64,000 bases of DNA from an uncultured Candidatus Saccharibacteria bacterium (GCA_964637575.1 CAZWVU010000004.1:14788-78787), one strand, 5' to 3'; positions 11,765-41,868 are shown, numbered from the stretch's first letter. Program-made: numbers and translations. The notes: a model not told the origin generated them from the sequence alone.

Positions 11765-11894
11765 GTTGGAAAGTTCCCCGGGAACCGGGTGTCCGTCGCG
11801 CTCCTGCGGCGCGACGGCACCACTAAAAACTCGGCAATTTGCAGGGCGCCAAGCCAAATTGCCTCCGTTATTTTCCCTACGGGAACTTTCCAAC
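11765..11894 (+). ncRNA. Copy 1 of an unassigned structured RNA-like element (GGGAACCGGGUGUCC family)
   Basis: 14-bp closing stem (GTTGGAAAGTTCCC / GGGAACTTTCCAAC). Conserved core with two internal hairpins. Covariation with copies at 28057, 41705 and 26268 (minus). Confidence 0.6.
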
Positions 11895-12181
11895 ATCCTT
11901 TTCCATCAATCCCGAACATATTAGGTTGCTGGCGAGGAGAAAGAGGGTGGGCTTGAGCGGCGCGGTTGGAAATAAAAAACCCGGTCAACATTTCTGTTGC
12001 CGGGTTTTGGATACTAACCTTTGCAAATGGAGCTGACGCGGATGATGCTTCCGGGAGCCGGCTTTCCGACGGTTTCCCGAAGGAGCTTGAAAAGGCCGAT
12101 ACGGAGTTTGGTCTTCGCCTTCTTCTCCAGAACCTTTTCAACCCGGACTCGGACGTGCCATTTGATGTGCATGCGGTCTCC

Positions 12182-12679
12182 TCATTTCAAAACTTTCACG
12201 TCCAGCCACTTCACACCGAAGCGACGGGCTTCGGAGTGCGACGCCATACGGACATCGATGTGAGTGATGCCGCGCTTGGCGTCCTGGCGCATCGCGCCGC
12301 CGGTGTCGTCCACCTCGCGGAGGCCGACGCCGGGGATGTCCAGGCGGGTGTGATAGGGGAGCAGCTTTGGATCCGCTGCCACCCCGTCATACCGGCGCCC
12401 GTCCTTGCCGGTCGCCGTTCTCGCGAACTTCGACCAGCTGCCGCAGCAGATGTCGCAGGTGCAGTATGCCGTTACCAGCATTCTTACCGCGACATGTTCC
12501 GCGCGGTGTTCCGGAGCTTCCGGAGCAGCGATTTTTCCCGCCGCTGGAGTCGCCGATTGCGCCACCAGGCGCGGAGCCACTTCCATGCGTTGAATCTCAT
12601 GGTTCGCTTCCCTCCGTGCAACCCAGATGACCCCTGCTCCCATCATCAACACCAGGCCGATGACAGGAGAAGTCTTCAC
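12182..12679 (-). CDS. 3D-domain (MltA/YocH-like) cell-wall-associated protein
   Basis: N-terminal TM. CTCDICCGSW...TATG...VAADP...VDDTGGAM is a 3D domain. Confidence 0.7.
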   Translation of the reverse strand: MKTSPVIGLVLMMGAGVIWVARREANHEIQRMEVAPRLVAQSATPAAGKIAAPEAPEHRAEHVAVRMLVTAYCTCDICCGSWSKFARTATGKDGRRYDGVAADPKLLPYHTRLDIPGVGLREVDDTGGAMRQDAKRGITHIDVRMASHSEARRFGVKWLDVKVLK

Positions 12680-13101
12680 CGCTCATCCTCCAACACAATG
12701 ATCTGCATCTTCGTCCGCTTGAACGCCGTCACTTCCTCGTGCGTGCGCACGCGGAAGCACAACAGAAGTTCGCCGCGCTGCGCCAGCGCCTCTTGCAGGC
12801 GCCTGCCCGTGTCGTCGACGATTTTCTCGCCGATGCCGGGAAGATACACGCGCTTGCCGAAGGGGATCGCCTTCGGGTCGGCGGCGGCGCCGTCGAAGTG
12901 TTTTGCCCCGTCCTTTCCCGTGGCGGTTTTTCCGCCGGGATTGGAGTCGCCGCAGCACTTCGCGCACATGCAGTACGCGAACACCGTCGCTTCGCGGGCA
13001 TCTTCCTTCTTCTGTTTCTGCTGGGCCATTACCGTTCCGGAATAGCCGAAGCCGAACAGGAAACTCGGAACCAGAAGCACTACGAACGCAAATTTGGTCA
13101 C
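12676..13101 (-). CDS. 3D-domain protein (paralog of the preceding gene)
   Basis: Signal/TM N-terminus. CMCAKCCGDS...TATG...AAADP...VDDTG. Confidence 0.7.
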   Translation of the reverse strand: MTKFAFVVLLVPSFLFGFGYSGTVMAQQKQKKEDAREATVFAYCMCAKCCGDSNPGGKTATGKDGAKHFDGAAADPKAIPFGKRVYLPGIGEKIVDDTGRRLQEALAQRGELLLCFRVRTHEEVTAFKRTKMQIIVLEDER

Positions 13102-13199
13102 ATTCCCTCCTCTTTTCAGTTCTCAAAGACCACAAAAATACCAGTATTTTATACCATTAAATAAGCCTACTTGTCAAGTATGACGCGGTATGGTATGGT

Positions 13200-13558
13200 G
13201 CAGGTGGCTGGCAATCCAGACAACCGCGCTCCGGTCCGCAAGGATCACGGGTGAGGAAAGTCGGAGCTCCCGTCCCGGTCGCAAGACCGAAGACAAAGGT
13301 AGCAGTTAACAACTGCCGGCAGTAATGCAGAGGTGCGAACAGTGACGTCCCGAAGCGAAAGCTGAAGGAGAGCCCCATCCCAACGTAGAAGGCTCAACCC
13401 GATTATAGGGATACAAGATCGGGGTGAAACGGCTAAATTCCTTACCGGGTGCAAGGCCGTACTCCGCAAGGAGAGTGCCGCTCGAGGTCTGCCGCGAGGT
13501 AGATCCCAGATAAATGGTTGTCCACGACAAAACTCCGCTTACGGATTGCCAGCCTTCA
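13200..13558 (+). ncRNA. rnpB: RNase P RNA (bacterial type A)
   Basis: P1 pairing GGCTGGCAATCC (13206-13217) with GGATTGCCAGCC (13543-13554). GAGGAAAGTCGGAGCTCC and GGGGTGAAACGG conserved blocks. Followed by a terminator. Confidence 0.85.
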
Positions 13559-13561
13559 AAA

Positions 13562-13583
13562 CCCCCGATTCGTCGGGGTTTTT
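13562..13583 (+). terminator. Rho-independent terminator after rnpB
   Basis: CCCCGA-TTCG-TCGGGG hairpin followed by TTTTT. Confidence 0.7.
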
Positions 13584-13656
13584 GATTTCAGATGGGGGAT
13601 TGACAAATAATAATAAATTTGTCATAGTTTCAGCAGTTCATATGGGAGGAGGCGAT

Positions 13657-13992
13657 ATGGCGAAGATTCAAACCGAGGTGGGCGAGGTGAAGCGTGTATG
13701 CGCGCCGAGCTGCAAGAAGAATCTGAAGCATGAGCCGTGCGCATGCACCGAAAAAACGAAGGTGGTAACCAAGGTGGAGATTTTCGCGGTCTTCGAAGGA
13801 GTGCGGCGGTACCGGGCCTATTTCTCCCCGAATCCCAGAAATCCCGGAAGTCTGCCGAGGATTTCCAACAAGGAGCGCTTCAATGAGCAGGGCCAGCCGG
13901 AGGAAGTGAACGTCCAGATTCCGGACACCATCTACGTGGTCATGGCCCGCCGCGCCCTTGCCATCATCAACAGCGGAGCCCCTCAACTATGA
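13657..13992 (+). CDS. Hypothetical Cys-rich small protein
   Basis: GGAGGAGG RBS before the ATG at 13657. CAPSC...CAC cluster. No known domain. Confidence 0.45.
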   Translation: MAKIQTEVGEVKRVCAPSCKKNLKHEPCACTEKTKVVTKVEIFAVFEGVRRYRAYFSPNPRNPGSLPRISNKERFNEQGQPEEVNVQIPDTIYVVMARRALAIINSGAPQL

Positions 13993-14037
13993 GGGGCTTT
14001 TTCTTTCGCAACGCCCGACGCCGGCGCTCCTTCTCCT

Positions 14038-14074
14038 CGGCAGGACGTCGGGCTACAATCCTGCCTGCGGGAAG
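14038..14074 (+). repeat. Solitary copy of the 37-nt dispersed repeat (variant CGGCAGGACGTCGGGCTACAATCCTGCCTGCGGGAAG) with complementary flanks
   Basis: 35/37 identity to the 6661 unit. Flanks GCCGGCGCTCCTT / AAGGAGTGCCGGC can pair. Confidence 0.8.
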
Positions 14075-14156
14075 GAGTGCCGGCTCATTGAGAGAAAGAG
14101 GTAAGTTTGTGTGGATTAGTTTCAAGCGCAAGTGTGTTAAAATTAGACCATACGTT

Positions 14157-15434
14157 ATGCCGGCTAAAACGGTTAAAAAACCGACGGAAAATAAGGTGGA
14201 AGAAAAGCCCGCGAAGTCAGGCGGCGCTGACGCGGTAAAAGGCGAACTTTCCAAATCACCGAGCGAACTTTCCATCATCAAGCTGGTGGACAGCCTGGTG
14301 CAGGCGGCGTTTCTGGCGCGCTCTTCCGATATCCACATCGATCCCGGCGAAAAACAGATCGCGGTGCGTTTCCGGATCGACGGAGTTCTTCATGATTTTT
14401 ATGTCTTCCCGAAAGAAATTCAGTCCGAGGTAATCAGCCGCATCAAAGTCCTCTCAGGGCTTCGGACCGACGAACACCAGGCGGCCCAGGACGGACGTTT
14501 CCGGCTCACCTTCGACACGGTCAACGTGGATGTCCGCGTCTCCATCGCGCCGACCTACTATGGGGAAAATTGCGTGATGCGTCTGCTTGCCGATCAGGCG
14601 GCGTCATTCACGCTGGAGTCGCTGGGATTTGAAGGCCGCGACCTGGAAGTAGTGAAACGGAATATCAAAAAACCGTACGGCATGATTCTCGCCACCGGCC
14701 CGACCGGCTCCGGCAAGACCACCACGCTCTATACGATTTTGAAAATGCTCAACACGAAAGATGTTTCCATCATCACCATCGAAGATCCGGTGGAATATTC
14801 CATCGACGGACTGGAACAGATCCAGGTGAACTCGCGCACCGGACTGAGCTTCGCGAGCGGGCTCCGCTCCATTCTCCGCCAGGATCCGAACATCGTCATG
14901 GTGGGCGAGATCCGCGACGAGGAGACTGCCGGCATTGCGGTAAACGCGGCGCTGACCGGCCACCTGCTTCTTTCCACGCTTCACACGAACGACGCGGCAA
15001 CCACCCTGCCGCGCCTGCTGGATATGAAAATCGAGCCGTTCCTGATCGCTTCCACCGTTAACGTGGCGGTCGGCCAGCGGCTGGTAAGAAAAATCTGCCC
15101 CGACTGCAAAGTGAAAAAACCGGTCGGCCCGGATGAATTGAAGAGTCTCGCGAGCGTGATTCCCGCCAAAGTGCTGGACGCGGCGAAGACGTTTTACCAT
15201 GGCGAAGGATGCGCCAAATGCGACCACAGCGGCTACAAGGGGCGCATCGGCATCCATGAGGTGATGGAGATCGACGACGAGGTCCGGGTGGCCTTGATGA
15301 AGAGCGCCGACGCGGGAGAAATTAAAAAGATCGCTGTGAAAAACGGCATGACGACCATGGTGGAAGACGGATTCCGCAAAGCGGTGGACGGCGTTACCAC
15401 CATCGAAGAAGTATTGCGCGTCATTCATGAATAA
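14157..15434 (+). CDS. pilB: Type IV pilus assembly ATPase PilB/GspE family (short form)
   Basis: Walker A GPTGSGKTT. Asp box, His box and tetracysteine motif (CPDC...CAKC). ~425 aa. Confidence 0.85.
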   Translation: MPAKTVKKPTENKVEEKPAKSGGADAVKGELSKSPSELSIIKLVDSLVQAAFLARSSDIHIDPGEKQIAVRFRIDGVLHDFYVFPKEIQSEVISRIKVLSGLRTDEHQAAQDGRFRLTFDTVNVDVRVSIAPTYYGENCVMRLLADQAASFTLESLGFEGRDLEVVKRNIKKPYGMILATGPTGSGKTTTLYTILKMLNTKDVSIITIEDPVEYSIDGLEQIQVNSRTGLSFASGLRSILRQDPNIVMVGEIRDEETAGIAVNAALTGHLLLSTLHTNDAATTLPRLLDMKIEPFLIASTVNVAVGQRLVRKICPDCKVKKPVGPDELKSLASVIPAKVLDAAKTFYHGEGCAKCDHSGYKGRIGIHEVMEIDDEVRVALMKSADAGEIKKIAVKNGMTTMVEDGFRKAVDGVTTIEEVLRVIHE

Positions 15435-16506
15435 AACCTCGTTTCTTTCCGGCATCTTCACCCGCGTGCCGATCGAGGATCAGGTGCTTTTGGCGCGCCA
15501 CCTTGCCGTGATGGCGAAGGCCGGGCTGCCGCTCCTGGAAAGCGTGAAGATGATCCAGAAGGAGACGAAGAGCAAGAGTCTGAAAAAAATCCTTGATCAG
15601 GTGGTGGTGGACGTGAGCAACGGCCAGTTTCTTTCCGCGAGCCTGGAAAAGCATAAAAACGTGTTCGGCAATCTTTTCATCAACATTATCCGGGTGGGCG
15701 AGTCGGCGGGCATTCTCGCGGAAAACCTTAATTACCTCGCGGACGAGCTGAAAAAGAAGCGGGAACTGAAGAAAAAAGTGACCGGCGCGCTTATTTATCC
15801 GGCGGTGATTTTTGTGGCCACCTTCGGCATCACCGGATTGCTCACCGTGTTTATCTTCCCGAAAATCCTGCCGATTTTTAAAAGTCTGAACGTCGAATTA
15901 CCGATTACCACGCGGATCCTGATCTGGCTGAGCAACGCGCTCACGAATTACGGCCTGTATCTGATCCTGGGCCTACTGGCATTGCTTCTCGGAATTTATG
16001 GCATCTCGCTGATCCAGAAAGTCCGCTATTTTCTGCACTGGGTATTGCTGAAGCTTCCCATTTTCGGCAACATTTCCCGCAGCGTCAACCTGGCTAATGC
16101 CAGCCGCACGCTCGGCCTCACGCTCAAAAGCGGCGTCCGGGTGGTGGAGGCGGCGACGATCACCGCCGAGTCCCTCACCAACCTTGTCTACCAGCGGGAA
16201 TTACTGAAGGCGGCGGATCTGGTTCAGCGGGGAGAAGCGCTCGGACCGATTCTGGAAAAGCACCCCAAACTTTTTCCCTCGATTGTCACGCAGATGGTCG
16301 CGGTGGGCGAGGCGTCCGGCAATCTAAGCGAAACGCTGCTGTATCTTTCCGACTTCTACGAAGGCGAGGTGAATGAAATTACCAAAAATCTTTCCAACGT
16401 GCTTGAGCCGATTCTGATGGTAACGATGGGCATCGTGGTGGGATTTGTCGCGATTTCCATCATTACGCCGATTTATGAAATCACTTCAAGCATCAGCCCG
16501 CGCTAA
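15427..16506 (+). CDS. pilC: Type IV pilus inner-membrane platform protein PilC/GspF
   Basis: Two GspF repeats. TM segments. Overlaps the pilB stop by 8 nt. Confidence 0.85.
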   Translation: MNKTSFLSGIFTRVPIEDQVLLARHLAVMAKAGLPLLESVKMIQKETKSKSLKKILDQVVVDVSNGQFLSASLEKHKNVFGNLFINIIRVGESAGILAENLNYLADELKKKRELKKKVTGALIYPAVIFVATFGITGLLTVFIFPKILPIFKSLNVELPITTRILIWLSNALTNYGLYLILGLLALLLGIYGISLIQKVRYFLHWVLLKLPIFGNISRSVNLANASRTLGLTLKSGVRVVEAATITAESLTNLVYQRELLKAADLVQRGEALGPILEKHPKLFPSIVTQMVAVGEASGNLSETLLYLSDFYEGEVNEITKNLSNVLEPILMVTMGIVVGFVAISIITPIYEITSSISPR

Positions 16507-16939
16507 GGGGAAGGGCGCGGGGTTCACCCTGCTGGAAACGCTGCTCGTCGTGTCCATTCTGGCGCTGCTGTTCGCGATCGGGTTGCCGGTGGCGTTCAAT
16601 TTCTATCAGGCCTACCAGTTTGATTCGGAATACGAACTCCTTTTTTCCCTACTGGAACAGGCGCGCAATCAGGCGCTGACGAATTATCATGAGGCAAGCC
16701 ACGGTCTTTCCATTAACAGCGTGAACTTCGTGCTGTTTCAGGGTTCCAGTTTCGCCGCGCGCACCGCGGCGCAGGACAAAACCTTTCCCCGCAATTCCGC
16801 CATTACCATCGCCGGCCCCTCGGAAGTGGTCTTCAGCCAGCTGGACGGTACCGTGGCGTCGAGTACGTTTACGGTGAGCAACAGCTACAAAAGCCACGAT
16901 CTTTATTTGAATTCGGAGGGATCGGTGTATTCAAAATAA
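16475..16939 (+). CDS. Prepilin-type (pseudopilin/minor pilin) protein
   Basis: Class III signal KGAGFTLLETLLVVSILAL with Glu at +5. Confidence 0.7.
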   Translation: MKSLQASARAKGKGAGFTLLETLLVVSILALLFAIGLPVAFNFYQAYQFDSEYELLFSLLEQARNQALTNYHEASHGLSINSVNFVLFQGSSFAARTAAQDKTFPRNSAITIAGPSEVVFSQLDGTVASSTFTVSNSYKSHDLYLNSEGSVYSK

Positions 16940-18408
16940 TGAAAATTTTGAATTTAAAATTTACAATTTTAAAAAAAGAAGAAGGGCAGTCGCTTGTTGA
17001 GCTCCTGGTCGCGATCGGCATTTTCAGCATCGCGACGGCCGCCGGCTTCAGTTTATTTTTCGGCGGGCAGATCATCTCCACCGACAGCTCCAATATCAAT
17101 CTGGCCACGGATTACGTCCGGGAGGCGCAGGACGCGCTCCGCGCGATCCGCAACCGCAATTTTACCGAACTGCTCACCGACGGGCCGCACGGCTTTACCT
17201 TCAACGGATCGGAGTGGCTCCTGTCGTCCAGTACCTCTGACACGAAAGATGTGTTTACGCGGCAGGTGAACATCGCCAAGGGGGATTCGGATAACATCAA
17301 GATCGCCACCACCACCGTCACCTGGTCCAGCGCCGATCCCAGCCGGACCGAAAGCCTTACCTTCGTCGAGCAGTTTACCGACTGGGAAACGCCGCTCCAG
17401 AGCAGCTGCAAGTCGCAGGCGCTGACCGGCGACTGGACGAATCCGGTTACGCTTGGTTCGGCGGATATCGGTTCGGGAAATTCCGGGACGGACGTCGTCG
17501 CCAAAGGCAGTTACGCCTACGTGAGCGGTACCGCTTCTTCCGCGAGCAAGCCGGATATTTTTGTGTTTGACGTGAGCGCGCCCGCGGCGCCGGTGCAAAA
17601 GGCTTCACTCAACGTTACCAACGGAGGAATCAACGCGCTTTTCCTGAATGGCAATTACCTCTACGCGGCTTCGCCCGACAACAGCAAGGAATTTCTGGTC
17701 TTTGACGTGACTACCCCGACCAGCATCACTCTCAAGGGTTCGCTGGATTTAACCGGCAACGATGACGCGCTTTCGGTAGTGACGATCGGCACCACTGCGA
17801 TCGTCGGACGGCAAGGAAGTGCCGCCAAACAGATCTCGTTTATTGACGTGAGCGACCCGGCCAATCCGAGCGTGATCAAAGAATTCACCAGTCCCAATGG
17901 CGGCGATATTACCGATCTCGCCTACACGGACAACCGGCTCTACGCGACGAATTATCTTGCCAACGGCACCGCCGACATCCTGACATTCGATATCACCGAT
18001 CCCAGAAACCCCACCTATATCAGCAGTTACGATGTTCCCGCCACGGACAAGCCGCTTTCCGCGTACGTGGAAATCAAAGCGGGCGGCACCAATCTTCTGC
18101 TGGGCGACGGCGACAATGAACTGGTGGCGGTGGGGGCGACAACCACGAGCGGCATGTACGTCCGGAGCCGGGTGAACGTCGGGGGCAAGGTGAATGATAC
18201 CGTCTGCGTGCTGGGCAATCTCGCGTTTCTCGCCACCGATAACCAGAACGCCGAATTTACCGTGGTGAATGTGAATAATCTCAACAGCCTTTCCGTGTAC
18301 TCAACTCTGAATTACCCGAATTTCGCGACCGGAATCGATTTCGACAGCAACAAGGTCTACATGGCGGTGCGAAGCAACGACGCGCTGCGCATTATCACGT
18401 CGCAATAA
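16939..18408 (+). CDS. Large pilin-like protein: prepilin N-terminus fused to LVIVD-repeat beta-propeller (putative pilus tip adhesin)
   Basis: Leader ...EEGQSLVELLVAIGIF with E at +5. Four or more LVIVD-type repeats (IFVFDVSAPAAP, LVFDVTTPTS, ISFIDVSDPANPS, LTFDITDPRNPT). Confidence 0.65.
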   Translation: MKILNLKFTILKKEEGQSLVELLVAIGIFSIATAAGFSLFFGGQIISTDSSNINLATDYVREAQDALRAIRNRNFTELLTDGPHGFTFNGSEWLLSSSTSDTKDVFTRQVNIAKGDSDNIKIATTTVTWSSADPSRTESLTFVEQFTDWETPLQSSCKSQALTGDWTNPVTLGSADIGSGNSGTDVVAKGSYAYVSGTASSASKPDIFVFDVSAPAAPVQKASLNVTNGGINALFLNGNYLYAASPDNSKEFLVFDVTTPTSITLKGSLDLTGNDDALSVVTIGTTAIVGRQGSAAKQISFIDVSDPANPSVIKEFTSPNGGDITDLAYTDNRLYATNYLANGTADILTFDITDPRNPTYISSYDVPATDKPLSAYVEIKAGGTNLLLGDGDNELVAVGATTTSGMYVRSRVNVGGKVNDTVCVLGNLAFLATDNQNAEFTVVNVNNLNSLSVYSTLNYPNFATGIDFDSNKVYMAVRSNDALRIITSQ

Positions 18409-19349: not shown

Positions 19350-19826
19350 ATGAACAACAACATGAAAAAGAACTCAGGTTTTACCCTCATTGAATTGCTC
19401 GTGGTAATCGGAATTATCGCGATTTTGGCAGGTGTGGTAATCGTAGCGTTGAACCCGGCCCGGCAATTCGCCCAGGCTCGGAACACCCAGCGCTCGGCAA
19501 ACGTGAACGCCATCTTGAACGCAGTCGGTCAGCGTCTGGCTGACAACCGCGGCACATGGCCCGTAGTTGCCGGCGATTGCGCCGCCCTCCCGACCGCGAC
19601 GACGACGATCTCCAGTTCGCAGTACAACATCTACAAGTGCATTGTGCCGAACTACATGAGCAGCCTCCCCGTAGATCCTTCGAACGGTACTCTTACCGAT
19701 GCGACGGATTACGACAGCGGCTATGAGATCGTGAAGGACACGACGACCGGACGGGTTACCGTGAACGCCAAGTACGCGGAAGCCATTGCCGGACTTGCCT
19801 CCACGACGATTTCCGTTTCACGCTAA
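19350..19826 (+). CDS. pilA: Type IV major pilin (copy 1)
   Basis: SGFTLIELLVVIGIIAILAGVV prepilin signal. 158 aa. Confidence 0.85.
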   Translation: MNNNMKKNSGFTLIELLVVIGIIAILAGVVIVALNPARQFAQARNTQRSANVNAILNAVGQRLADNRGTWPVVAGDCAALPTATTTISSSQYNIYKCIVPNYMSSLPVDPSNGTLTDATDYDSGYEIVKDTTTGRVTVNAKYAEAIAGLASTTISVSR

Positions 19827-19832
19827 ATTCCC

Positions 19833-20297
19833 ATGAATAAACAATCAGGTTTTACCCTCATTGAATTGCTCGTGGTAATCGGAATTATCGCGATTTTGGC
19901 AGGTGTGGTAATCGTAGCGTTGAACCCGGCCCGGCAATTCGCCCAGGCTCGGAACACCCAGCGCTCGGCAAACGTGAACGCCATCTTGAACGCAGTCGGT
20001 CAGCGTCTGGCTGACAACCGCGGCACATGGCCCGTAGTTGCCGGCGATTGCGCCGCCCTCCCGACCGCGACGACGACGATCTCCAGTTCGCAGTACAACA
20101 TCTACAAGTGCATTGTGCCGAACTACATGAGCAGCCTCCCCGTAGATCCTTCGAACGGTACTCTTACCGATGCGACGGATTACGACAGCGGCTATGAGAT
20201 CGTGAAGGACACGACGACCGGACGGGTTACCGTGAACGCCAAGTACGCGGAAGCCATTGCCGGACTTGCCTCCACGACGATTTCCGTAAGCAGATAG
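19833..20297 (+). CDS. pilA: Type IV major pilin (copy 2, identical mature protein)
   Basis: ~440 nt identical to copy 1. Differs only in the leader and in synonymous codons of the last 3 residues. Confidence 0.85.
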   Translation: MNKQSGFTLIELLVVIGIIAILAGVVIVALNPARQFAQARNTQRSANVNAILNAVGQRLADNRGTWPVVAGDCAALPTATTTISSSQYNIYKCIVPNYMSSLPVDPSNGTLTDATDYDSGYEIVKDTTTGRVTVNAKYAEAIAGLASTTISVSR

Positions 20298-25566: not shown

Positions 25567-25634
25567 TTCACGCAAAACATCCGCTTCGGCGGATGTTTTT
25601 GGTTTCTTTGGTTTCGCGAACTCCTCCTTCTCCT

Positions 25635-25671
25635 CGCCAGGACGTCGGGCTACAATCCTGTCTGCGGGAAG
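25635..25671 (+). repeat. Solitary exact copy of the 37-nt dispersed repeat with 13-bp complementary flanks
   Basis: Identical to the 6661 unit. Flanks CGAACTCCTCCTT / AAGGAGGAGTTCG are perfect reverse complements. Preceded by a terminator hairpin at ~25571-25603. Confidence 0.85.
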
Positions 25672-25753
25672 GAGGAGTTCGCTGCCGTCTCGCAGAATGG
25701 TTTTTCAAGGGAAATCATGCTAAATTAGGAATAGTTTTTTTAGGAAAAAACGT

Positions 25754-26113: not shown

Positions 26114-26267
26114 TCCCCGCGCCCTCTCTAGGGCGCTTTTTCCTTCCGCGCTGCTCAAATTACCTAAGGCGTACTGGTAATACTTATAAAAACGGTCTTC
26201 CTACGCCAAACATCGCGGATTTTCTTCTTTTAAAAATAACTGCGAAGTCTTCCGTTCTTCTCTGTAG

Positions 26268-26432
26268 CCAGCCGGAATATTTTCGAGGGAATATCTCGGA
26301 GCCGATTCGGCTGGCCTGGCGCATGGTTGCGCCAGGGCCAAGGGTGCCTTGCGAATCGGCGAGAGCTAAGTGGTGCCGTTGCGCCGCCGGAGCGCAACGG
26401 ACACCCGGTTCCCGAGAAGATGTTCCGGCTGG
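26268..26432 (-). ncRNA. Copy 4 (minus strand) of the GGGAACCGGGUGUCC structured element, with an expanded second hairpin
   Basis: Reverse complement reads GGGAACCGGGTGTCCGTTGCGCTCCGGCGGCGCAACGGCACCAC...GCCGATTCG[insert]CGAATCGGCTCCGAG. Closing stem TTCCCGAGAAGATGTTCCGGCTGG / CCAGCCGGAATATTTTCGAGGGAA. Confidence 0.55.
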
Positions 26433-26500
26433 TTGAGGTGGCAGGAGAAGAATGGAAGACAAGCCCACCTTGTAAGAAATATGCTATTATATCGTCGTAT

Positions 26501-28056: not shown

Positions 28057-28194
28057 GGCCACCACCCCACTTCCTCGGGAACCGGGTGTCCGTTGCGCTC
28101 CAGCGGCGCAATGGCACCACTAAACGCTCGGCGATTTGCAGGGCACCAAGCCAAATCGCCTCCGCGATTTTCCCTGTGGAGTGTGGTGGTGGCC
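28057..28194 (+). ncRNA. Copy 2 of the GGGAACCGGGUGUCC structured element
   Basis: Closing stem GGCCACCACCCCACTTCC / GTGGAGTGTGGTGGTGGCC. Core ~90% identical to copy 1, with compensatory changes in both hairpins. Confidence 0.6.
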
Positions 28195-28252
28195 TCTTAC
28201 TTATTTTAGGAATCAAAAATCCGCCTCTTCGGCGGGTTTTTGATTTAAGAAC

Positions 28253-28570: not shown

Positions 28571-28603
28571 GATAATAAAAAATCCCCCTGTTTTCAGGGG
28601 ATT

Positions 28604-28730
28604 TGGTTGGCCCGGGAGGGATTGCCTACAACTCTCGGCTCGCCGTCGCTCGCCTCGGTCGCAGGCCGCCCCTCGTCCACGATTTTCTACTGAAAATCGG
28701 GACTGCGGGCTTCAATCCCTCCGAAACGAT
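28604..28730 (-). ncRNA. tRNA-Met-linked conserved element ending in a copy of the tRNA-Met T-arm/acceptor 3' segment
   Basis: Minus-strand read GGAGGGATTGAAGCCCGCAG...GAGGGGCGGCCTGCGA...GTTGTAGGCAATCCCTCCCGGGCCAACC(A). The 3' 21 nt equal the tRNA-Met 3' end. Duplicated terminator at 28576-28603. Confidence 0.55.
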
Positions 28731-28752
28731 AAATCCCCTGAAACAGGGGATT

Positions 28753-28829
28753 TGGTTGGCCCGGGAGGGATTGAACCTCCAACCTCGCGGATTATGAGTC
28801 CGGCGCTCTACCAGTTGAGCTACGGGCCA
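28753..28829 (-). tRNA. tRNA-Met (anticodon CAT; could also be lysidine-type Ile2), CCA encoded
   Basis: Cloverleaf: acceptor TGGCCCG/CGGGCCA, D arm GCTC/GAGC, anticodon loop CTCATAA, T arm GGAGG-TTCAATC-CCTCC. 77 nt. Confidence 0.85.
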
Positions 28830-32882: not shown

Positions 32883-34268
32883 TTAAGAAGTTTTTTTCGG
32901 CCAGAGAAACGGGCCGGCGGGCGTGTCTTCGAGGATGTATCCGAGCGTTTCAATCTCTTTCCGGAGCCGGTCGGAGTCGGCAAACTGCCTGGCGGCTCTG
33001 AATTTTTCCCGTGCGTTCGCCAGCTTTTCAGCTTTGGAGGGAATTTCCGGCATGTCCGGCGTGATGCCAAACAAATCCAGCTTCGCTATCAGCCATTTCC
33101 GGATTACTCCGGCTGTTTTTTTATCGAAATTCCAGATCTTCGGGTTGGCGGCGGCGATCAGCCCGAACAGCCCGGCCAGGGCGCCCGGCGTATTGAAGTC
33201 GTCTTCCAATGCCTCACGGAACTTCGTTTCGTAATTTTCAATTTCCAATTTAGGGTCTTCAATCCCGGAAGATTTTTTAGGAAACGCTAATTTAGCGAGA
33301 AACTGGGCGATGCCGTCCAGCGCCGCGGCCGACTGGCGCACCAGTTCGTCGGAGTAATCGAGCGGGGAACGGTAGTGATGGCTCAAGGTGACAAACCGGA
33401 GCAATGCCGCGGAATGATCTTTGAGAAAATCGCGGATGGTAATAAAATTGCCGAGACTTTTGGACATTTTCTGGCCGTTCACGAGGAGGTGGCCGGCGTG
33501 CATCCAGATCGCGGCCAGCGGCGCTTTTCCCGAGGCGGCTTCCTGCTGGGCGATTTCGGCTTCGTGGTGGGGGAACTTCAGGTCGATGCCGCCGCCATGG
33601 ATATCGTATTGCGGGCCGAAAAATTTTTCGGTGATGGCGGTATCCTCGATGTGCCAGCCGGGCCGGCCTTCTCCGAGCGGCGTGTTCCAGGACGGTTCTC
33701 CCGGTTTGGAGAATTTCCAAAGCGCGAAGTCGCCCTTATTTTTTTTGCCTATGCTCTCATCGATGCGCGTTACCGAGTCTTCCGCCTGTTGGACGGTGCG
33801 TTTGGCGAGTTTCCCGTATTCGGGAAAAGTGGCGATATCGAAATACCAGCCGTCGTCCTCTATTTTATAGGCATGGCCTTTGTCGATAAGCGTCTGAATC
33901 TGGGCGGTGATTTCCTTTATGTATTTGGTCGCCGGCGCGTATTTCGTGACGGAATCTATGCCGAGCGCCTTCTCGTCTTCGTGGTAGGCTTTTTCGAATT
34001 TCTTGGCGACGTCCGCGGCGCGCACCCCCTCTTCGCGGGCGCGGCGGATAATTTTATCGTCGACGTCGGTGACGTTCTGGAGATAAAACACTTTCAGGCC
34101 GCGGGAGCGGAGATAGGTTGCGAATGCGTCAAAGACAATATAGGTGCGGGCGTTGCCGATATGGGCGTAATCATATGGCGTGAGGCCGCAGACGAAAAGT
34201 TTAAGAGGGCCGCGCGCAGGCGGTACAAGAGGTTCTTTATGGCCGGAGAGAGTGTTATAGATAAACAT
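32883..34268 (-). CDS. cysS: Cysteinyl-tRNA synthetase
   Basis: HIGNART (HIGH) and KMSKSLGN motifs. 461 aa. Confidence 0.9.
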   Translation of the reverse strand: MFIYNTLSGHKEPLVPPARGPLKLFVCGLTPYDYAHIGNARTYIVFDAFATYLRSRGLKVFYLQNVTDVDDKIIRRAREEGVRAADVAKKFEKAYHEDEKALGIDSVTKYAPATKYIKEITAQIQTLIDKGHAYKIEDDGWYFDIATFPEYGKLAKRTVQQAEDSVTRIDESIGKKNKGDFALWKFSKPGEPSWNTPLGEGRPGWHIEDTAITEKFFGPQYDIHGGGIDLKFPHHEAEIAQQEAASGKAPLAAIWMHAGHLLVNGQKMSKSLGNFITIRDFLKDHSAALLRFVTLSHHYRSPLDYSDELVRQSAAALDGIAQFLAKLAFPKKSSGIEDPKLEIENYETKFREALEDDFNTPGALAGLFGLIAAANPKIWNFDKKTAGVIRKWLIAKLDLFGITPDMPEIPSKAEKLANAREKFRAARQFADSDRLRKEIETLGYILEDTPAGPFLWPKKTS

Positions 34269-34302
34269 TCAATAATTTTAAATTTCAAATTTAAAATTTG
34301 GG

Positions 34303-35211
34303 TTACAGCCACTTTTTCTTTTTGAAGAAAATGATCAGGCCGATCACGGTGATGCCGAGCACAATAAAGATCGTCCAGAACCGGAGCGGCGTCGCGGTAA
34401 TGAAGTTTCCGATAAAGCTGACGGAGAGGAGCGACGTGAACAGCCCGAGGGGAATGGCGAGAAACGCGAGGATGGTAAATCTTTGCATGACCTTGTTGGT
34501 TTTGGCACTCAAGAGCTGGCCGTTGGTCTCCTCGAGGGCCTCGATCGTGGCCTGGTAGTTTTCCACGTGCTGGGTGACTTTGGAATAATCGCCGGCGAGA
34601 TCGGAAAGATAAATCTGATTATTCTCCCCCCAGAACTTTCTTCCTGTTTCCACAAGCGATTCCAGGAGAATTTCCTGGGGCGCGCTGATGACGCTGAAGT
34701 CCAGGACGTCGCGTTTTGCGTAGGAAATCTTTTCCAGCATCTCGTCCTCCTTACCCTTGAAAATTTCCTCGGAGATGGTGCGGATGTTGTCTTCCACGTG
34801 GCGAAGCTGGCGGAGGGAAAAATGGATGATCTCCTGGATCAGGAAATAGACGCACTGGGCGGTGTCATCCAGCGCTTTGGTTTTGAAATGAACATTGTTG
34901 TTGAGCGAACGCATGAAGGCGTCGATCGGTTCGAGGTCTTCGTAGTGCACGGTGATTACCTGCTTCTTCGTGATCAGAAAATCTATTTCCGCCCGCCGGG
35001 AAGTTTTCAGGGTCTTGTCGTAGACGGGCAGATGGTAGGTGAGGAAAAGGTAGGTGGGATAAAATTCGACGCGGGAGCGGTTGGAAAGATGAAGAAGCTC
35101 GTCGAGAATGATCGGGTGGAACTTATGCTGTTTTTTTAAAAAATCAATGTCCGACTTGGTCGGTTTGAGAATATCAATCCAGGCGGCGTTGTCAGATTTG
35201 GTTATCCACAT
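34303..35211 (-). CDS. corA: CorA-family divalent cation transporter
   Basis: Cytoplasmic alpha/beta domain and two C-terminal TM helices with a GNF (GMN-like) loop. 302 aa. Confidence 0.7.
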   Translation of the reverse strand: MWITKSDNAAWIDILKPTKSDIDFLKKQHKFHPIILDELLHLSNRSRVEFYPTYLFLTYHLPVYDKTLKTSRRAEIDFLITKKQVITVHYEDLEPIDAFMRSLNNNVHFKTKALDDTAQCVYFLIQEIIHFSLRQLRHVEDNIRTISEEIFKGKEDEMLEKISYAKRDVLDFSVISAPQEILLESLVETGRKFWGENNQIYLSDLAGDYSKVTQHVENYQATIEALEETNGQLLSAKTNKVMQRFTILAFLAIPLGLFTSLLSVSFIGNFITATPLRFWTIFIVLGITVIGLIIFFKKKKWL

Positions 35212-37278: not shown

Positions 37279-37307
37279 TTGACTCCCGGGCTTTTATTAA
37301 TTAAAAT
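37279..37307 (+). promoter_or_regulatory. Sigma70-like promoter of the grpE-dnaK-dnaJ operon
   Basis: TTGACT (37279-37284), 17-bp spacer, TAAAAT (37302-37307). ~10 nt before the grpE ATG. Confidence 0.5.
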
Positions 37308-37316
37308 TTCCCTGCA

Positions 37317-37778
37317 ATGGATGAATCACCTGTAGGAGAACTCGAACAACTGAAAAAGGAACGTGACGAATACCTCAACGGCTGGAAACGCGCCAAGGCC
37401 GATCTGATAAATTATCAGAAGGAAGAAGCGGCCCGGCTGGAAGATGTTATCCGGTATGCCAAAGCGGGAATGGTAAAAGATCTGATCGCCGTGCTGGATA
37501 GTTTTGAACTCGCGCTGTCCGTAATGGAAAAAGATGGCAGGAGTGAAAAAGGAATATTTATGATAAAGGGACAGCTGGAGGAGGCGCTCAAGCGGGCGGG
37601 AGTGGAGAAGATATCCGTCGCGGTCGGCAATCCGTTCGACGCTAATTTCCAGGAAACAGTTGCCGAGAGGGAATCCGACCAGCCGGCAGGCACTATAATG
37701 GAAGTGGCGGAACAGGGATACATGCTTCAGGGTCGCGTCATTCGTCCGGCGCGGGTAATATTAAGCAAAGAAAAATAA
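37317..37778 (+). CDS. grpE: Nucleotide exchange factor GrpE
   Basis: Coiled-coil N-terminus and GrpE C-terminal beta domain. 153 aa. Upstream of dnaK. Confidence 0.9.
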   Translation: MDESPVGELEQLKKERDEYLNGWKRAKADLINYQKEEAARLEDVIRYAKAGMVKDLIAVLDSFELALSVMEKDGRSEKGIFMIKGQLEEALKRAGVEKISVAVGNPFDANFQETVAERESDQPAGTIMEVAEQGYMLQGRVIRPARVILSKEK

Positions 37779-37790
37779 TATAATTACATC

Positions 37791-39668
37791 ATGGCAAAAA
37801 TAATCGGTATTGATCTCGGCACCACCTATTCGGAGGTCGCAGTCATGGATACGGCCGGTCCGCGCATTCTGGAAAACGCCGAAGGCATGCGGATCACGCC
37901 GTCCATGGCGGCGATCAGCAAGTCCGGCGAGCGGCTGGTCGGCCTTTTGGCGAAGCGCCAGGCGGTGACCAACCCCAAGAACACGATCTTTTCCGTGAAG
38001 CGGCTGATCGGCCGGAAATTTACCGATGCCGAGGTTCAGCGCGACAAGCAATGGCTGCCGTACGACATCCGCCAGTCCGAGAGCGGCGGCTGCGAAGTGA
38101 AAATGGGCGACCGGTGGTACAAGCCGGAGGAAATTTCGGCGATGGTGCTCGCAAAACTGAAAGCCGATGCCGAAGCGAAGCTTGGCGAGAAAGTAACGGA
38201 AGCGGTAATCACCGTGCCGGCGTATTTTGACGACAGCCAGCGCCAGGCAACCAAAAATGCCGGCGAGATCGCAGGCCTGAACGTGCGCCGCATTCTCAAC
38301 GAGCCGACCGCCGCGGCGCTCGCGTATGGTTTGAATAAACAAAAGAACGAAAAGATCGTTGTCTACGATTTCGGCGGCGGCACCTTCGACGTTTCCGTGC
38401 TGGAGGTAGGGGACGATACGGTGGAAGTGAAGGCGACCGGCGGCGACACCCATCTCGGCGGCGATGATCTGGACAAGCGGATCATTGAATATCTGGTCAA
38501 CGAATATAAAAAACTGGAGGGCGTGGACCTTTCCAAGGATGCGCTCGCGATCCAGCGTCTAAAGGAGGCCGCGGAGCGCGCCAAGCATGAGCTTTCCACC
38601 GCGTTTGAAACGGAGATCAATCTTCCCTATGTCACTTCCGACGCGTCCGGCCCCCGCCATTTCCTGATGAAACTTTCCCGGAGCAAACTGGAGGAGCTGG
38701 TCCGCGATCTGATCGACAAATCGGTGCAGATCCTTGACGCGACCATCAAAGAAGCCGGGTTCGCCACGGCGACTATCAACGAGATCGTCCTGGTCGGCGG
38801 CCAGACGCGCATGCCGGCGATGCAGGAGGCGGTCAAAAAATATTTCGGCCGCGAACCGCACAAAGATTTGAACCCCGACGAGGTAGTAGCGCTTGGCGCG
38901 GCGGTGCAGGCGGAAATTCTCGCGGCGAAAGACGAGGGCCGCAAGCCGGAGGGCGACGTGAAGGATATTCTTTTGCTCGACGTCACTCCGCTCTCCCTCG
39001 GTATTGAGACCCTGGGCGGCGTCTTCACGAAATTGATTGAGAAGAACACGACCATTCCGACCGCGAAATCACAGGTATTTTCCACCGCGGCCGACAACCA
39101 GACGTCCGTGGAAATCCATGTGTTGCAGGGAGAGCGGCCGATGTCCGCCGACAACAAAACGCTCGCCCGGTTCATTCTGGACGGCATCCCGCCGGCGGCG
39201 CGCGGCACTCCGCAGGTGGAAGTAACCTTCGATATCGACGCCAACGGTATTTTAAGTGTGTCGGCCAAGGACAAAGGCAGCGGCAAGACTCAGTCCGTGC
39301 GCATTGAAGCAAACACCAGTCTTTCCAAGGATCAGATTGAGAAGTTGAAGAACGAGGCGGCGCAGTATGCCGAACAGGACCGGCAGAAACAGTCGCTGGC
39401 GGAAGCCCGGAACAATGCCGAAAATCTCGTCTACGTCTCCGAAAAAGCGGTGAAGGACGCGGGCGACAAGATTTCCGCGGAGATAAAGGATGCCATTAAT
39501 AAAAAAATAGAAGCGCTCAAAGCGGTGAAGGACGGACAGGATGCCGGCGCGATTAAGAATGCGGCGAATGATCTTTCCTCCGAGATCCAGAAGATCGGCG
39601 CCCAGATGTACGGGAATCCTCCGGCGGGTTCGGGAAATGCCGGCGAACCGCCGAAGCAAGAACAGTAA
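37791..39668 (+). CDS. dnaK: Chaperone DnaK (Hsp70)
   Basis: [20 protein letters not shown] and full NBD plus SBD. 625 aa. Confidence 0.95.
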
Positions 39669-40594
39669 TGACCAGAGTTTCCAGTAAGAAAATCGCGCTG
39701 GGTATCGCCGGAGTATGCGCGGCGCTGCTTTTCGGATACTGCTTCAGCGGATTCATCGCCGCGGCGACCGCGGTGAGTTTCCTCGGCGTGTGCGCGAGCG
39801 CGGCGCTGTTTCTCTCCCTTTTCCTGATTCAGGTGATGGTGGCCGCGGACGTGAAAACCACCATGCTCTTTGTCGTGCTGGAAATCGCCGCGATAAGCGT
39901 GTTTCAGATCGGGAATTTTTCCCCGGTGCTGGGCGCCGGAATTCTCGCAGGTGCCGGATTCCTGATCATGGCCTACTACGGCGGAGTCTCAGAAATTAAA
40001 AGCCGCCTGGATATTGAATTCACGAAAACCTCCCGCGTCATTATGGGATCGGCCACGCTCGCGCTTGCCCTGTTTGCCAGCTTTGCCTACGTCAATTCAT
40101 TCGATCTGAAGAATCCCGCCGCGGCGCGGAAGAATCTTGAGGTGATCATCAAGCCCGCTGAGCCGATCGTGAGCCGGTACATCCCGAATTTTTCCACGCA
40201 GAACACGCTCCGCGAGATCGCGGCAAAAATGCTGCCCGCGAGCGAGCGCCTCTCCTCTCCCGCCGACCAGGCCAACACCATCTCGCAGATTTCCGTCAAT
40301 CTCACCGACGCGCTCGCCAAACTCACCGGGGCCAGAATTGCGCCGACGGACCGGGTTATTGATGTCGTGTACAAAGCCACCCTTGGGAAGGTCGTATCCC
40401 TGCCGCCGTTGACGCAGACAATCGTCCTGATTGCCTTCGGGGTGATCTTTTTCTTTTTTATCAAATTCATCCTGTTCTTCGTGGACTGGGCGGCCGTGGG
40501 GATAGGCTACGGCTGGTACCGGCTTCTGAAAGCCGCCGGCTTTTTTGCCATCGAGATGCAGAACGTTCCGAAGCGTGTTATAGTAATTCAATAG
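39668..40594 (+). CDS. Hypothetical polytopic membrane protein inside the dnaK operon
   Basis: 308 aa with several TM segments. Lies between dnaK and dnaJ. Confidence 0.5.
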
Positions 40595-40598
40595 AATC

Positions 40599-41684
40599 TT
40601 GATGAAGGACTATTACAAGATTTTGGGAGTGGAAAAAAGCGCTTCCGAGGAAGATATCAAAAAGGCCTACCGGAAGCTCGCGCACCAGTACCATCCGGAT
40701 AAATCGGGCGGCAGTACCGAGAAGTTTAAGGAAATCAGCGAGGCGTACCAGATCTTGTCGAACAAGGACAAGCGTGCCCAGTACGACCGTTTCGGCCGCG
40801 TATTCGAGGGAGGACAGCCGGGCGGGACACCGTTCGGGAACGGGTTTGAATTTGGGTTCGGATTCGATCCGAACAACCTCGATGATCTCGGGAACATCAG
40901 CGATATTTTCGAAACCTTTTTTGAAGGAATGGGAGTCAAGAAACGGAAAAGCTACCATCGCGGTTCCGACGTGGAATATATCCAAGCTATCACCCTCGAA
41001 GAAGCGTTCCGCGGCATTGAGAAAAAATTAAAGGTGAAGCTCCACATCCAGTGTGCCGCCTGCAAATCGCTCGGTTATTTTGCCGATGCGGGATTGACCG
41101 AGTGCGCGACCTGCAGCGGCCGGGGAGAAATAAAAGAGTCCCGCAGCACATTCTTCGGAAGCTTTTCCCAGGTGCGGGCGTGCCCGAAGTGCCAGGGTGT
41201 CGGCCAGATTCCCAATAAAACCTGCGGCGACTGCAAGGGCAGCGGACGCACCGCGGCGAGCAAGGAAATCGTCATCCAGATCGCGCCGGGCGTAAGCAAC
41301 GACCAGTTGATCAAACTGGTGGGCGCGGGGGAAGCGGGAGAGCGGGGAGCGGAACCGGGAGATCTTTATATCCGCGTGAAAATCGAACCGCACAAAATAT
41401 TCGAACGGCACGGCGACGACCTGCTGGTGAAAAAAGAAGTGCAGATGGTGGACGTTCTGCTGGGAACTAAAATTGAAGTGCCGACGATCGGCGGCAATGT
41501 TCTGCGGGTGGAGATTCCTTCCAATTTCAATCTGAAGGATAAATTAAGGATTCCCGGCGAGGGTATGACGAAGTTTGGCGGGTACGGCCGCGGCGATTTA
41601 TACGTCGATTGGGATGTAAAAACCCCGAAACGCGTCAGCTCCAAAGCCAAAAAGATATTGGACGACCTTAAAAAAGAATTTTAG
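40599..41684 (+). CDS. dnaJ: Chaperone DnaJ
   Basis: J domain DYYKILGV...HPDK. G/F-rich linker. Cys-rich zinc-finger region. C-terminal domains. Confidence 0.9.
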
Positions 41685-41704
41685 GAATTATTCGGGTCCC
41701 TCTT

Positions 41705-41868
41705 GGGCGATTGCTTTCGGGAACCAGCGTCCGTCTGCTCCAGCGGCAGGCGGCGCTTCAGCTCTCGGCGGTTTGCTCCGCCTTCGGCGGAGACCCAGGG
41801 GCTCTCGCCCGGTAATGGGCGAGGCAAGCCAAACCGCCTCCGAGATGTTCCCGAGAAGCAATGCGCCC
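41705..41868 (+). ncRNA. Copy 3 of the GGGAACCGGGUGUCC structured element, with a ~50-nt insertion in hairpin 2
   Basis: Closing stem GGGCGATTGCTTTCGGGAAC / GTTCCCGAGAAGCAATGCGCCC. Hairpin 2 stem GGCGGTTTG / CAAACCGCC. Confidence 0.55.

Follow-up and report, generated by a model that had tools for sequence, protein, structure and literature searches.

The 64,000-nucleotide stretch of DNA analysed here (the window) contains four copies of a folded repeat of about 100 bases, a member of a family in CPR bacteria that is undescribed. On comparison of the copies and their surroundings, we consider the family somewhat more probably than otherwise to be a non-autonomous, non-coding, self-nesting and structured mobile repeat that lands in the tips of hairpins, often those of terminators. 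The family is widespread in CPR/Patescibacteria. The organism from which the window comes is of Parcubacteria type, and its nearest named relatives are Ca. Harrisonbacteria. The literature searched contains no account of such an element in CPR, and a further search gave only general reviews on repeats in bacteria.

An earlier note on this DNA had proposed four copies of the hairpin repeat, and all four were recovered where it had placed them. We built a covariance model on 14 diverse copies; the four copies reach 75-88 bits with it (E 1e-16 to 1e-19), and no fifth copy was found in the window, including with its filters off. With the core defined as GGGAACC through TTCCC, the copies (c1-c4) have in common a three-way-junction core flanked by locus-specific stems, as follows.

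11759..11899, + strand: c1; core 11780-11877; arms 11759-11778 / 11881-11899; 86.5 bits
28057..28194, + strand: c2; core 28077-28174; arms 28057-28074 / 28178-28194; 88.3 bits
28215-28243, either strand: ordinary bidirectional intrinsic terminator downstream of c2
41686..41885, + strand: c3; core 41719-41852; inner arms 41705-41718 / 41853-41868; 75.1 bits
41686-41696 / 41875-41885, + strand: outer terminator-like layer of c3, AATTATTCGGG / CCCGAATTATT
26268..26432, - strand: c4; core 26287-26413; own arms 26416-26432 / 26268-26284; 75.9 bits

The hairpin sequences quoted in the earlier note, and the compensatory differences among the four copies, were correct. Its closing stems are indeed locus-specific, with different arms mapped for each copy, and the hairpin-2 insertions that it described in c3 and c4 were seen as extra hairpins, at 41796-41825 inside the conserved ACC^AAGC bulge of c3 and at 26311-26342 at the ACC^AGC site of c4. 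The gene context also held, with the caveats that the gene upstream of c1 is known only by an RNase H1 N-terminal domain, the sole Pfam match of its protein, and that the gene upstream of c2 encodes a DUF5667 protein. c1 starts at the stop codon of its upstream gene, and its 5' arm shares the last two bases of that codon (TAG, 11758-11760); a short T run lies just past its 3' arm, and its fold has an MFE of -74.6 kcal/mol (z -8.9). c2 starts 8 nt past the DUF5667 gene (stop codon 28047-28049), which is preceded by an ECF sigma gene; since the terminator at 28215-28243 lies downstream, c2 falls within the 3' untranslated part of the transcript. The best match of the DUF5667 protein is only 48% identical. 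c3 starts 2 nt past dnaJ, and c4 is inverted and lies between a terminator (26119-26136) and the sigma gene. The copies are spaced 1.6-15 kb apart in both orientations, with c4 and c2 flanking the sigma/DUF5667 gene pair. The family also generates spurious ORFs, for example 26184-26468 and 41703-42140.

The unit is about 90-150 nt in size and has a stem of its own of ~13-19 bp. Its core is a three-way junction formed by P1 (GGGAA/UUCCC), hairpin 1, with the invariant loop GCUCCNGCGGC, and hairpin 2, whose tip varies and whose bulge, ACCAAGC, is conserved. Conservation holds for each of the unpaired motifs, GCUCCNGCGGC, ACCAAGC and CUCCGAGA, and is strict from Saccharibacteria-type through Parcubacteria-type copies. 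Two of them are located in c1 as follows.

11800..11810, + strand: GCUCCNGCGGC, hairpin-1 loop motif, example in c1
11848-11854, + strand: (A/G)CCAAGC, second conserved unpaired motif in c1

In an alignment of 23 distinct copies from other CPR/Patescibacteria contigs, 96.9% of paired cells can pair, compared with 78% in shuffles and ~45% with slid partners, and double changes occur in 20/26 pairs. The proposal of a real family with a covarying fold is therefore strongly supported in the larger alignment. The folds are very stable, at -75 to -100 kcal/mol (z -7 to -9). Conserved unpaired motifs and so complex a junction are met with more in functional RNAs than in the bacterial repeats known so far, which speaks against a mobile repeat. 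Covariation alone cannot distinguish selection on RNA from folding of DNA single strands or from DNA-level correction of palindromes. The pattern expected of a generic structured ncRNA was not found: G-U pairs make up ~1% of paired cells in the core helices, the same level as A-C (one invariant U-G set aside), and the sense and antisense strands fold with similar energies. The termini share only the 5-bp P1 and a few inner stem bases, and the outer 8-35 bp differ at each locus. The earlier note had taken this combination of conserved structure and variable termini as a sign of selection at the RNA level. This argument was not borne out, given the behaviour of a mobile DNA described below, the lack of a wobble signature and the about equal folding of the two strands. 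Mismatches in the long arms are strand-biased (26 A-C vs 4 G-U on the sense strand), a bias that a mobile repeat does not predict, and the core helices have no strand bias.

Searching contigs fetched from other genomes with model R1 yielded 34 real matches in addition to the four in the window. The alternative that the copies are a DNA-level repeat had been raised in the earlier note, and signatures of mobile DNA are what we observed: identical cores at unrelated loci, absence at a syntenic site, patchy spread and nesting in either orientation. In two contigs of one MAG (L008 and L009), the cores are identical at 98/98 positions and, over 13 bp of the inner arms, the 5' arm is identical and the 3' arm has one difference, while the outer arms and flanks are unrelated. 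Downstream of dnaJ, two related contigs (L040 and L041) have only 10 nt; the corresponding interval of the window measures about 415 nt and includes c3 with its arms as well as the adjacent hairpin at 41893..42069; DnaJ is 84% identical in this comparison, so these are not near-identical strains. No copy was seen in the roughly 75 kb covered in five relatives, even with filters off, and another contig (L051) has two divergent copies; per 64 kb, some relatives have no copy and others at least 4. The stem of hairpin 1 is specific to the genome, being TTTTGC in 3/3 nzgw437 copies and CGCGC or TGCGC in c1, c2 and c4 of the window (CTGC in c3), and this specificity persists at the syntenic RNase H locus (L007 vs c1).

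In L024 and L039, arms of 19 bp move with the core into different gene contexts. We considered these two contigs as an empty and a filled site, related by an inverted duplication of the hairpin loop, but they are not syntenic outside about 230 nt. The comparison shows only that arms can travel with the core, and a deletion may have left the small hairpin of L024 behind. c1-c3 and most copies in relatives follow a stop codon at a distance of 0-40 nt, or up to about 85 nt in L007, and run in the same direction as the gene. Among Parcubacteria-type copies, about 9/11 have the same orientation as the upstream gene, which is compatible with a role at the RNA level or with insertion or selection that depends on orientation. 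The opposite orientation is found in c4, in the first copy of L024 (7657-7766) and the second of L051 (19908-20020), and in the nested copies. No copy lies in a coding region: all are intergenic or within other repeats. Adjacent direct repeats of at least 4 nt, as a target-site duplication would leave, occur in 1/19 copies, which is the chance level, and the 14 nt outside the arms contain no motif common to the copies. The view that the element is not a classical MITE is upheld by the absence of both conserved terminal inverted repeats and target-site duplication. No transposase was found among the ~40 largest ORFs scanned (the window has about 69 ORFs of at least 100 aa). Because neither an autonomous partner nor an enzyme was found, mobility is read from comparative patterns only.

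Two hairpins of a second repeat family, D5, are associated with copies in the window.

26247..26460, - strand: D5 hairpin repeat, host of c4; only the outer stem and flanks are left (26439-26460 and 26247-26267)
41893..42069, - strand: D5-family hairpin directly downstream of c3, its tip bearing a nested insert of 125 nt that is of a third kind

c4 stands in place of the D5 apical loop, and its host flank is identical to the D5 copy at 6700-6795 at 77/88 positions. Together, the window contains three or more hairpin families that are unrelated to one another and have locus-specific arms. The family also nests in itself. At 10 metagenome loci the element is hosted by a conserved structure of ~260 nt ('RNA-X'), whose flanks suggested RNase P RNA (its P7-P12 region). 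RNase P was ruled out, as there was no Rfam match even at E<=1, and so was any other housekeeping RNA: once the nested unit is removed, the reverse complement of 'RNA-X' aligns with the family itself. 'RNA-X' is thus a family member with a second copy, inverted, at the tip of its hairpin 2, an element nested inside an element. Extra hairpins occur at ACC^AAGC in c3, c4 and L007; L038 and L039 have theirs at the tip of hairpin 2. The outermost arms of six copies (c1, c2, c3, L008, L009 and L017) are terminator-like, each a GC stem with a T run after it. We considered whether every copy had entered a pre-existing host hairpin. This holds for c4, in D5, but the empty sites that compare with c3 and with the copy nested in 'RNA-X' show no such hairpin, and insertion at hairpin tips can thus not be claimed for all copies. 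Some of the arm sequence may arise during insertion.

The failure to assign the element to a known class was confirmed by an Rfam 15 scan of the whole window at the gathering threshold, which returned 4 tRNAs only. Permissive Rfam scans over c2, c4 and five other loci gave no match on the element, and twenty related loci gave tRNAs only. For the conserved motifs, K-turn, hammerhead, twister, SRP, 6S, tmRNA and attC were compared by eye and with Rfam, and none fits. An origin from phages or plasmids was rejected for want of a match in IMG/VR, phages and plasmids.

How does the element compare with known systems? Compensatory changes are reported for bcr1. MITE-like repeats such as bcr1, Correia/NEMIS, ERIC/RU-1 and RUP (reviewed in PMC3184786, PMC2229807) resemble the element in being small, non-coding, multi-copy and intergenic, with long hairpins that are often co-transcribed. 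MITEs are defined by terminal inverted repeats common to all copies and by direct target-site duplications (PMC3184786). The element shares with them small size, lack of coding capacity, multiple copies and presence/absence differences between genomes, but its termini differ at every locus, it makes no duplication, and its asymmetric central three-way junction is conserved. SPRITE-type 3'-end repeats (listed in PMC3184786) are also found at gene 3' ends as terminator-like hairpins, and an effect at the mRNA 3' end is likely. Unlike SPRITE- or REP-type simple hairpins, the element has a branched core within a hairpin and no GTAG-type REP head. REP/REPIN sequences are imperfect palindromes of 20-40 nt with a conserved head, usually in inverted doublets and accompanied by a RAYT gene; here the branched core spans 90-150 nt, copies are single rather than in doublets, and no RAYT-like gene was found in the window ORFs scanned.

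Other comparable systems are Rickettsia palindromic elements (RPE, listed in PMC3184786), mitochondrial GC clusters and double-hairpin elements (for yeast mitochondrial elements, PMC4478555), selfish palindromes of about 100-150 nt without classical transposon ends that are patchily distributed and that both tolerate structured or functional host sequences and are tolerated in them. The element is likewise a patchy palindromic repeat without terminal repeats or target duplications, but RPEs insert in-frame in protein genes, which its copies never do, and there is no sequence similarity. We know of no description of hairpin-tip nesting with layered stems for RPE-like elements. Integron attC sites also lie 3' of genes and conserve structure over stem sequence, and a single-stranded folded form is plausible for both; however, in attC the outer R boxes (R''/R') are the constant part and the centre varies, the sites occur in arrays of co-oriented cassettes, and IntI is required; the element has none of these traits. 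IS200/IS605-derived elements have subterminal hairpins and insert 3' of a fixed tetra- or pentanucleotide, whereas the copies share no flank motif. Finally, rRNA intervening sequences, which RNase III removes, sit sporadically at host hairpin tips on a long closing stem, but the hosts of the element are terminator-like hairpins and other repeats, not rRNA.

Four other explanations have to be weighed against a mobile repeat. The element could be a cis-acting RNA module at mRNA 3' ends (a stabilising cap, a terminator or an RNase III processing cassette) whose spread is secondary, as has been argued for REP, Correia and SPRITE-type repeats. The position and co-orientation of c1-c3 and most relatives shortly past stop codons, the location of c2 upstream of a real terminator, the very stable folds and the conserved unpaired motifs all favour such a module, and the mid-arm excess of helix-breaking A-C on the sense strand could reflect selection against long perfect dsRNA. 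Yet the core helices lack G-U enrichment, the oppositely oriented copies (c4, first L024, second L051 and nested) do not fit, and close relatives without the element at the same genes use ordinary terminators, so that we regard this explanation as unlikely. Trans-acting small RNA genes, with the core as mature RNA bound by protein at the CCNGC-type loops and the long stems as processing stems like those of rRNA precursors, would account for the covarying three-way junction with invariant loops across distant CPR lineages, for double-stranded stems that suit RNase III, and for the absence of a competing Rfam family. Such genes are very improbable given that no promoter-like site adjoins c2 or c4, that copy number varies among relatives from none upward, that inverted copies nest in copies and insertions lie inside the conserved bulge of cores, and that there is no wobble signature.

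A recombination site formed by folded single-stranded DNA (of the integron attC or CTX-phage type), with the antisense strand folding and acted on by some recombinase, would explain why structure is conserved and stem sequences vary, why copies lie 3' of genes, and why arm mismatches read as G-T wobbles on the antisense strand (26 vs 4). We consider it very improbable, as a conserved centre with variable ends is the opposite of attC, c1-c4 have no RYYYAAC/GTTRRRY boxes, and the widely spaced copies in both orientations do not bracket single-gene cassettes in one orientation. Moreover, no integron integrase occurs in the window, where the sole recombinase is a large serine recombinase by tRNA-His, 17 kb from the nearest copy, and the core helices show no strand bias. 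The copies might instead have neither dedicated function nor mobility, and be by-products of error-prone replication in repair-poor CPR genomes, where template switching at quasi-palindromes would make and lengthen palindromes at random. New palindromic sequence at hairpin tips (L039 vs L024, L038, c3, c4, L007) and the several unrelated hairpin families in the window are consistent with this, but random growth leaves unexplained that Saccharibacteria-type and Parcubacteria-type contigs share an asymmetric core of 100 nt whose loops are invariant, and that separate loci have identical cores; it is largely contradicted already, and we give it hardly any weight.

Under the preferred reading of a mobile repeat, the landing sites would be terminator-like hairpins just past stop codons, other hairpin repeats and the family's own hairpin-2 tip. 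Insertion at hairpin tips would leave every copy within a layered stem, with inner layers from the donor copy and outer layers from the locus. The repeat would be co-transcribed in 3' UTRs: c1-c3 come after a stop codon and before the next signal, which makes transcription of their sense strand likely, and these copies may have an effect at the RNA level. The fold could be kept in at least two ways: the propagation machinery may recognise the single strand in its folded form by the conserved loops, or a compact fold may let the host hairpin close, making the insertion nearly harmless in the transcript. Arm-to-arm DNA copying (quasi-palindrome correction) would yield abundant double changes without G-U intermediates. 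More tentatively, and against our own expectation, the family could represent a new class of bacterial mobile element that lacks terminal repeats and target duplication and whose spread is directed at hairpin tips in DNA or RNA (terminators, other repeats, its own hairpin-2 tip). Each move would then carry part of the former host stem and build onion-like layers, through a structure-specific single-strand mechanism or template switching, with the CCNGC-type loops as a recognition or catalytic site; in one variant, the core would be an RNA needed for its own spread.

CPR genomes are roughly 1 Mb and are thought to be streamlined. Despite this view, within 64 kb of the genome studied here, hairpin repeats of three or more families have proliferated and become nested. 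The present family is unannotated and easily modelled, and it could mislead screens for RNA motifs, since it offers textbook covariation without demonstrated RNA action; it could also be of use in telling strains apart within groundwater populations of CPR. If true, targeting of hairpin tips would be a low-cost mode of insertion not described for bacterial repeats, and transcripts might gain new structured domains through it.

All four copies of the structured repeat that the earlier note had placed in the window (c1 to c4) are present in its sequence, with cores that begin GGGAACC and end TTCCC:

11780-11877, plus strand: core of c1
28077-28174, plus strand: core of c2
41719-41852, plus strand: core of c3
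26287-26413, minus strand: core of c4

The locus-specific closing stems are also borne out, as every core lies inside its own, differing, almost perfect inverted repeat (the arms), and a covariance-model search of the window matched exactly these four copies, including with filters off. c1 and c2 are 89% identical across 105 nt. With their arms, the four copies have minimum free energies of -75 to -100 kcal/mol (z -7 to -9 against dinucleotide shuffles), and their opposite strands fold about equally (-74 to -110 kcal/mol). Three ORFs called mechanically across the elements (26184-26468, minus; 41703-42140, plus; 11687-11956, plus; 89-145 aa) are almost certainly spurious, though gene callers could annotate them.

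From 14 diverse cores, RNAalifold predicted a three-way junction composed of P1 (GGGAA/UUCCC), a hairpin 1 of 13 bp whose loop, GCUCCNGCGGC, is invariant, and a hairpin 2 with a variable tip and a conserved 3' bulge, ACCAAGC; the junction strands CUCUCG and CUCCGAGAyAUUCC are conserved. The pairing was tested in a covariance-model alignment of 23 distinct copies, with 500 column shuffles and slid partners as controls. Paired cells made up 96.9%, versus 78.0% in column shuffles and 41-48% with slid partners, double changes occurred in 20 of 26 pairs, and none of the 500 shuffles reached the observed values. The conserved, covarying fold proposed from the window therefore holds on the wider alignment, and the three-way-junction structure is real. 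The earlier note had also been right to leave it without a known RNA class: in the window and in related loci, no Rfam 15 family matched the element at gathering or permissive thresholds.

Comparison between loci shows several marks of mobile DNA. Near-identical copies occur at unrelated sites. Two copies on different contigs of one MAG (L008 and L009) have identical cores (98/98) and inner stems near-identical over 13 bp, with CGGGAAATTCCTC on the 5' side of both and a single differing stem position on the 3' side; farther out, neither the stems nor the flanks are related. Two further related loci, L024 and L039, share the same core and the same 19-bp arms in different gene contexts. The sequences of a small hairpin at L024 7817-7848 (GCCAGCAG-CTTTATCTTCGAAAAG-CCGCTGGC) recur in L039 (about 166-325) as the two arms around a divergent element copy; either the loop became a stem at insertion, or the L024 hairpin is a deletion remnant.

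Sites without a copy can also be compared. The grpE-dnaK-x-dnaJ locus is syntenic with relatives, and in two of these (L040 and L041; DnaJ 84% identical) the dnaJ stop codon is followed 10 nt on by the TTTTGTTATAAT promoter of the next gene. At the same site the window has about 415 nt in between, a stretch that contains c3 together with its arms, as well as a second hairpin repeat. The window holds four copies per 64 kb and the related contig L051 two divergent ones; no copy was found in about 75 kb of five relatives with filters off. L007, a contig of the MAG nzgw437, shares synteny with 7.2-14.6 kb of the window (proteins 64-78% identical) and also carries a copy after its RNase H-like gene. 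Because the hairpin-1 stem of this copy (TTTTGC) is that of other nzgw437 copies, unlike that of c1 (CGCGC), the genome-specific stems indicate homogenisation, or separate bursts in each genome. In L051 (19316-19515), 18 nt of the tRNA-Arg 3' end are duplicated, one on either side of an element copy. The arrangement is similar to an exact 30-nt direct repeat in the window (28595-28624 and 28744-28773), made up of the tRNA-Met 3' end and terminator start, with about 120 nt of structured, GC-rich DNA enclosed, which looks like an attachment-site scar or small insert.

Copies are also found within other hairpins. D5, a second hairpin repeat family of the window, has the core CTCCTCGCCAGGACGTCGGGCTACAATCCTGTCTGCGGGAAG and, at each locus, different arms of about 14 bp; its copies often begin at a stop codon:

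6650-6700, plus strand: D5 hairpin repeat
6709-6773, plus strand: D5 hairpin repeat
about 14020-14085, plus strand: D5 hairpin repeat
25616-25682, plus strand: D5 hairpin repeat
41893-42069, minus strand: D5 hairpin repeat, host of a 125-nt insert
41919-42043, minus strand: the 125-nt insert, structured and with arms of its own (ACAAATTA / TAATTTGT), at the tip of the D5-type hairpin adjoining c3
26247-26267 / 26439-26460, minus strand: D5 hairpin repeat, host of c4

c4 lies inside a D5 copy, in place of its apical loop; in the sequence that flanks the arms of c4, 77 of 88 positions are identical to the D5 copy at 6700-6795. The 125-nt insert seems to represent a third type of nested element. 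At ten loci from metagenomes, the element sits at the end of a long stem, within a conserved structure about 260 nt in size. A first reading of this structure as RNase P RNA had no Rfam support. With the nested unit removed, its reverse complement aligns with the family through the loop CCCAGCG, CTCTCGGCC, an ACC..GCC bulge and CCTGCGAGAG, and likewise with the L039 copy, which is un-nested; the structure is a family member with an inverted second copy at its hairpin-2 tip. Differing small hairpins are inserted at the same point of the hairpin-2 bulge (ACC^AAGC) in c3, c4 and L007, and the hairpin-2 tip of L038 and L039 carries new palindromic sequence. Together, nested c4, the nested metagenome copies, these bulge and tip inserts and the D5-tip insert show that hairpin tips are recurrent insertion sites in these genomes.

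The arms consist of layers. Related copies have the inner few to 13 bp in common (TTCCTC in c2, L007, L008 and L009; UGUCUGA/CACGACA in the Saccharibacteria-type group) and the outer parts are locus-specific; the outermost layers of c1, c2, c3, L008, L009 and L017 are terminator-like, a GC stem followed by a T run. Flank comparison found no direct repeats beside the hairpins, and among the copies compared the sequence outside the arms held no common motif. As c3 and the nested copies show, the arms at least partly travel with the core or form during insertion. On the sense strand, arm mismatches comprise 26 A-C versus 4 G-U, a strong bias that the core helices do not share. The arms may pair on the antisense strand, or sense-strand changes that weaken the helix may be favoured, avoiding long dsRNA in the transcript or a hazardous hairpin on one DNA strand. 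The mismatches often fall at a similar distance from the core (about 10-20 bp) in unrelated arms.

A single pattern scan over GTDB species genomes recovered five true copies and seven chance matches in high-GC genomes. Of the true copies, the MAG 'bacterium nzgw437' has three, each on its own contig, and a Ca. Saccharibacteria MAG and an unclassified MAG have one each. One metagenome scan added 22 true copies, several on Hainich groundwater contigs labelled '01um', which we read as the 0.1-um size fraction. The best matches of the window DnaJ are unnamed groundwater MAG proteins and the nearest named are from Ca. Harrisonbacteria (58-65% identity), which makes the host a Parcubacteria-type CPR bacterium. 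We found no description of the family in phage and plasmid records (IMG/VR included) or in the literature searched. The window carries housekeeping genes, no transposase was found among its roughly 40 largest ORFs, and the sole recombinase found adjoins tRNA-His, probably at the edge of an integrated element:

59124-60803, minus strand: large serine recombinase with Resolvase, Recombinase and zinc-ribbon domains, abutting tRNA-His (59062-59135)

The ORFs downstream of it (61101-63058) had no Pfam match. Elsewhere in the window, a 300-nt tandem duplication (19361-19660 and 19832-20131; 99% identical) results in a pair of paralogous ORFs, each about 155 aa long, and AT-rich AATTTTAAATTT-type repeats recur between genes (3411-3754, 10257-10283, 16934-16973, 34257-34305 and others), which may be promoter or UP-element-like sequence.

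The best-supported reading is that the element is a non-autonomous, self-nesting structured repeat. The earlier note had argued from the conserved structure for selection at the RNA level, and this was not supported: double changes are abundant, yet G-U pairs occupy only about 1% of cells, the same as A-C, and one-sided G-U intermediates are rare, the exception being one invariant U-G adjoining the hairpin-1 loop. Helices under RNA selection usually have several per cent G-U. The pattern fits a fold required on both strands, or palindromes whose arms are kept complementary as DNA. The main rival is that the element acts in cis in 3' untranslated regions. Of 11 Parcubacteria-type copies, about 9 are co-directional with the upstream gene, a bias that is not absolute, and the sense strand of c2 is almost certainly transcribed because this copy has a stop codon before it and a genuine terminator after it; no promoter-like site was found beside c2 or c4. 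Such a role could coexist with mobility, as in REP, Correia or SPRITE elements (PMC3184786, PMC2229807).

For a self-nesting repeat, we infer that the element would bring a short stem of its own and end up in hairpin tips, often those of gene-end terminators, where its compact fold would leave the host hairpin able to form. The conserved loops would presumably be recognition points for the propagation machinery, and arm-to-arm correction would give covariation without wobble intermediates. As the earlier note had proposed, the family is not a classical MITE, since it fails the tests for terminal inverted repeats and target duplications that define MITEs (PMC3184786). It likewise fails the defining tests for REP/REPIN, attC sites and IS200/IS605-derived elements. 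Nearest in behaviour are the selfish palindromic elements (Rickettsia RPEs; mitochondrial GC-cluster or double-hairpin elements), and rRNA intervening sequences are alike in position. There is a modest chance that the family propagates in a new way.
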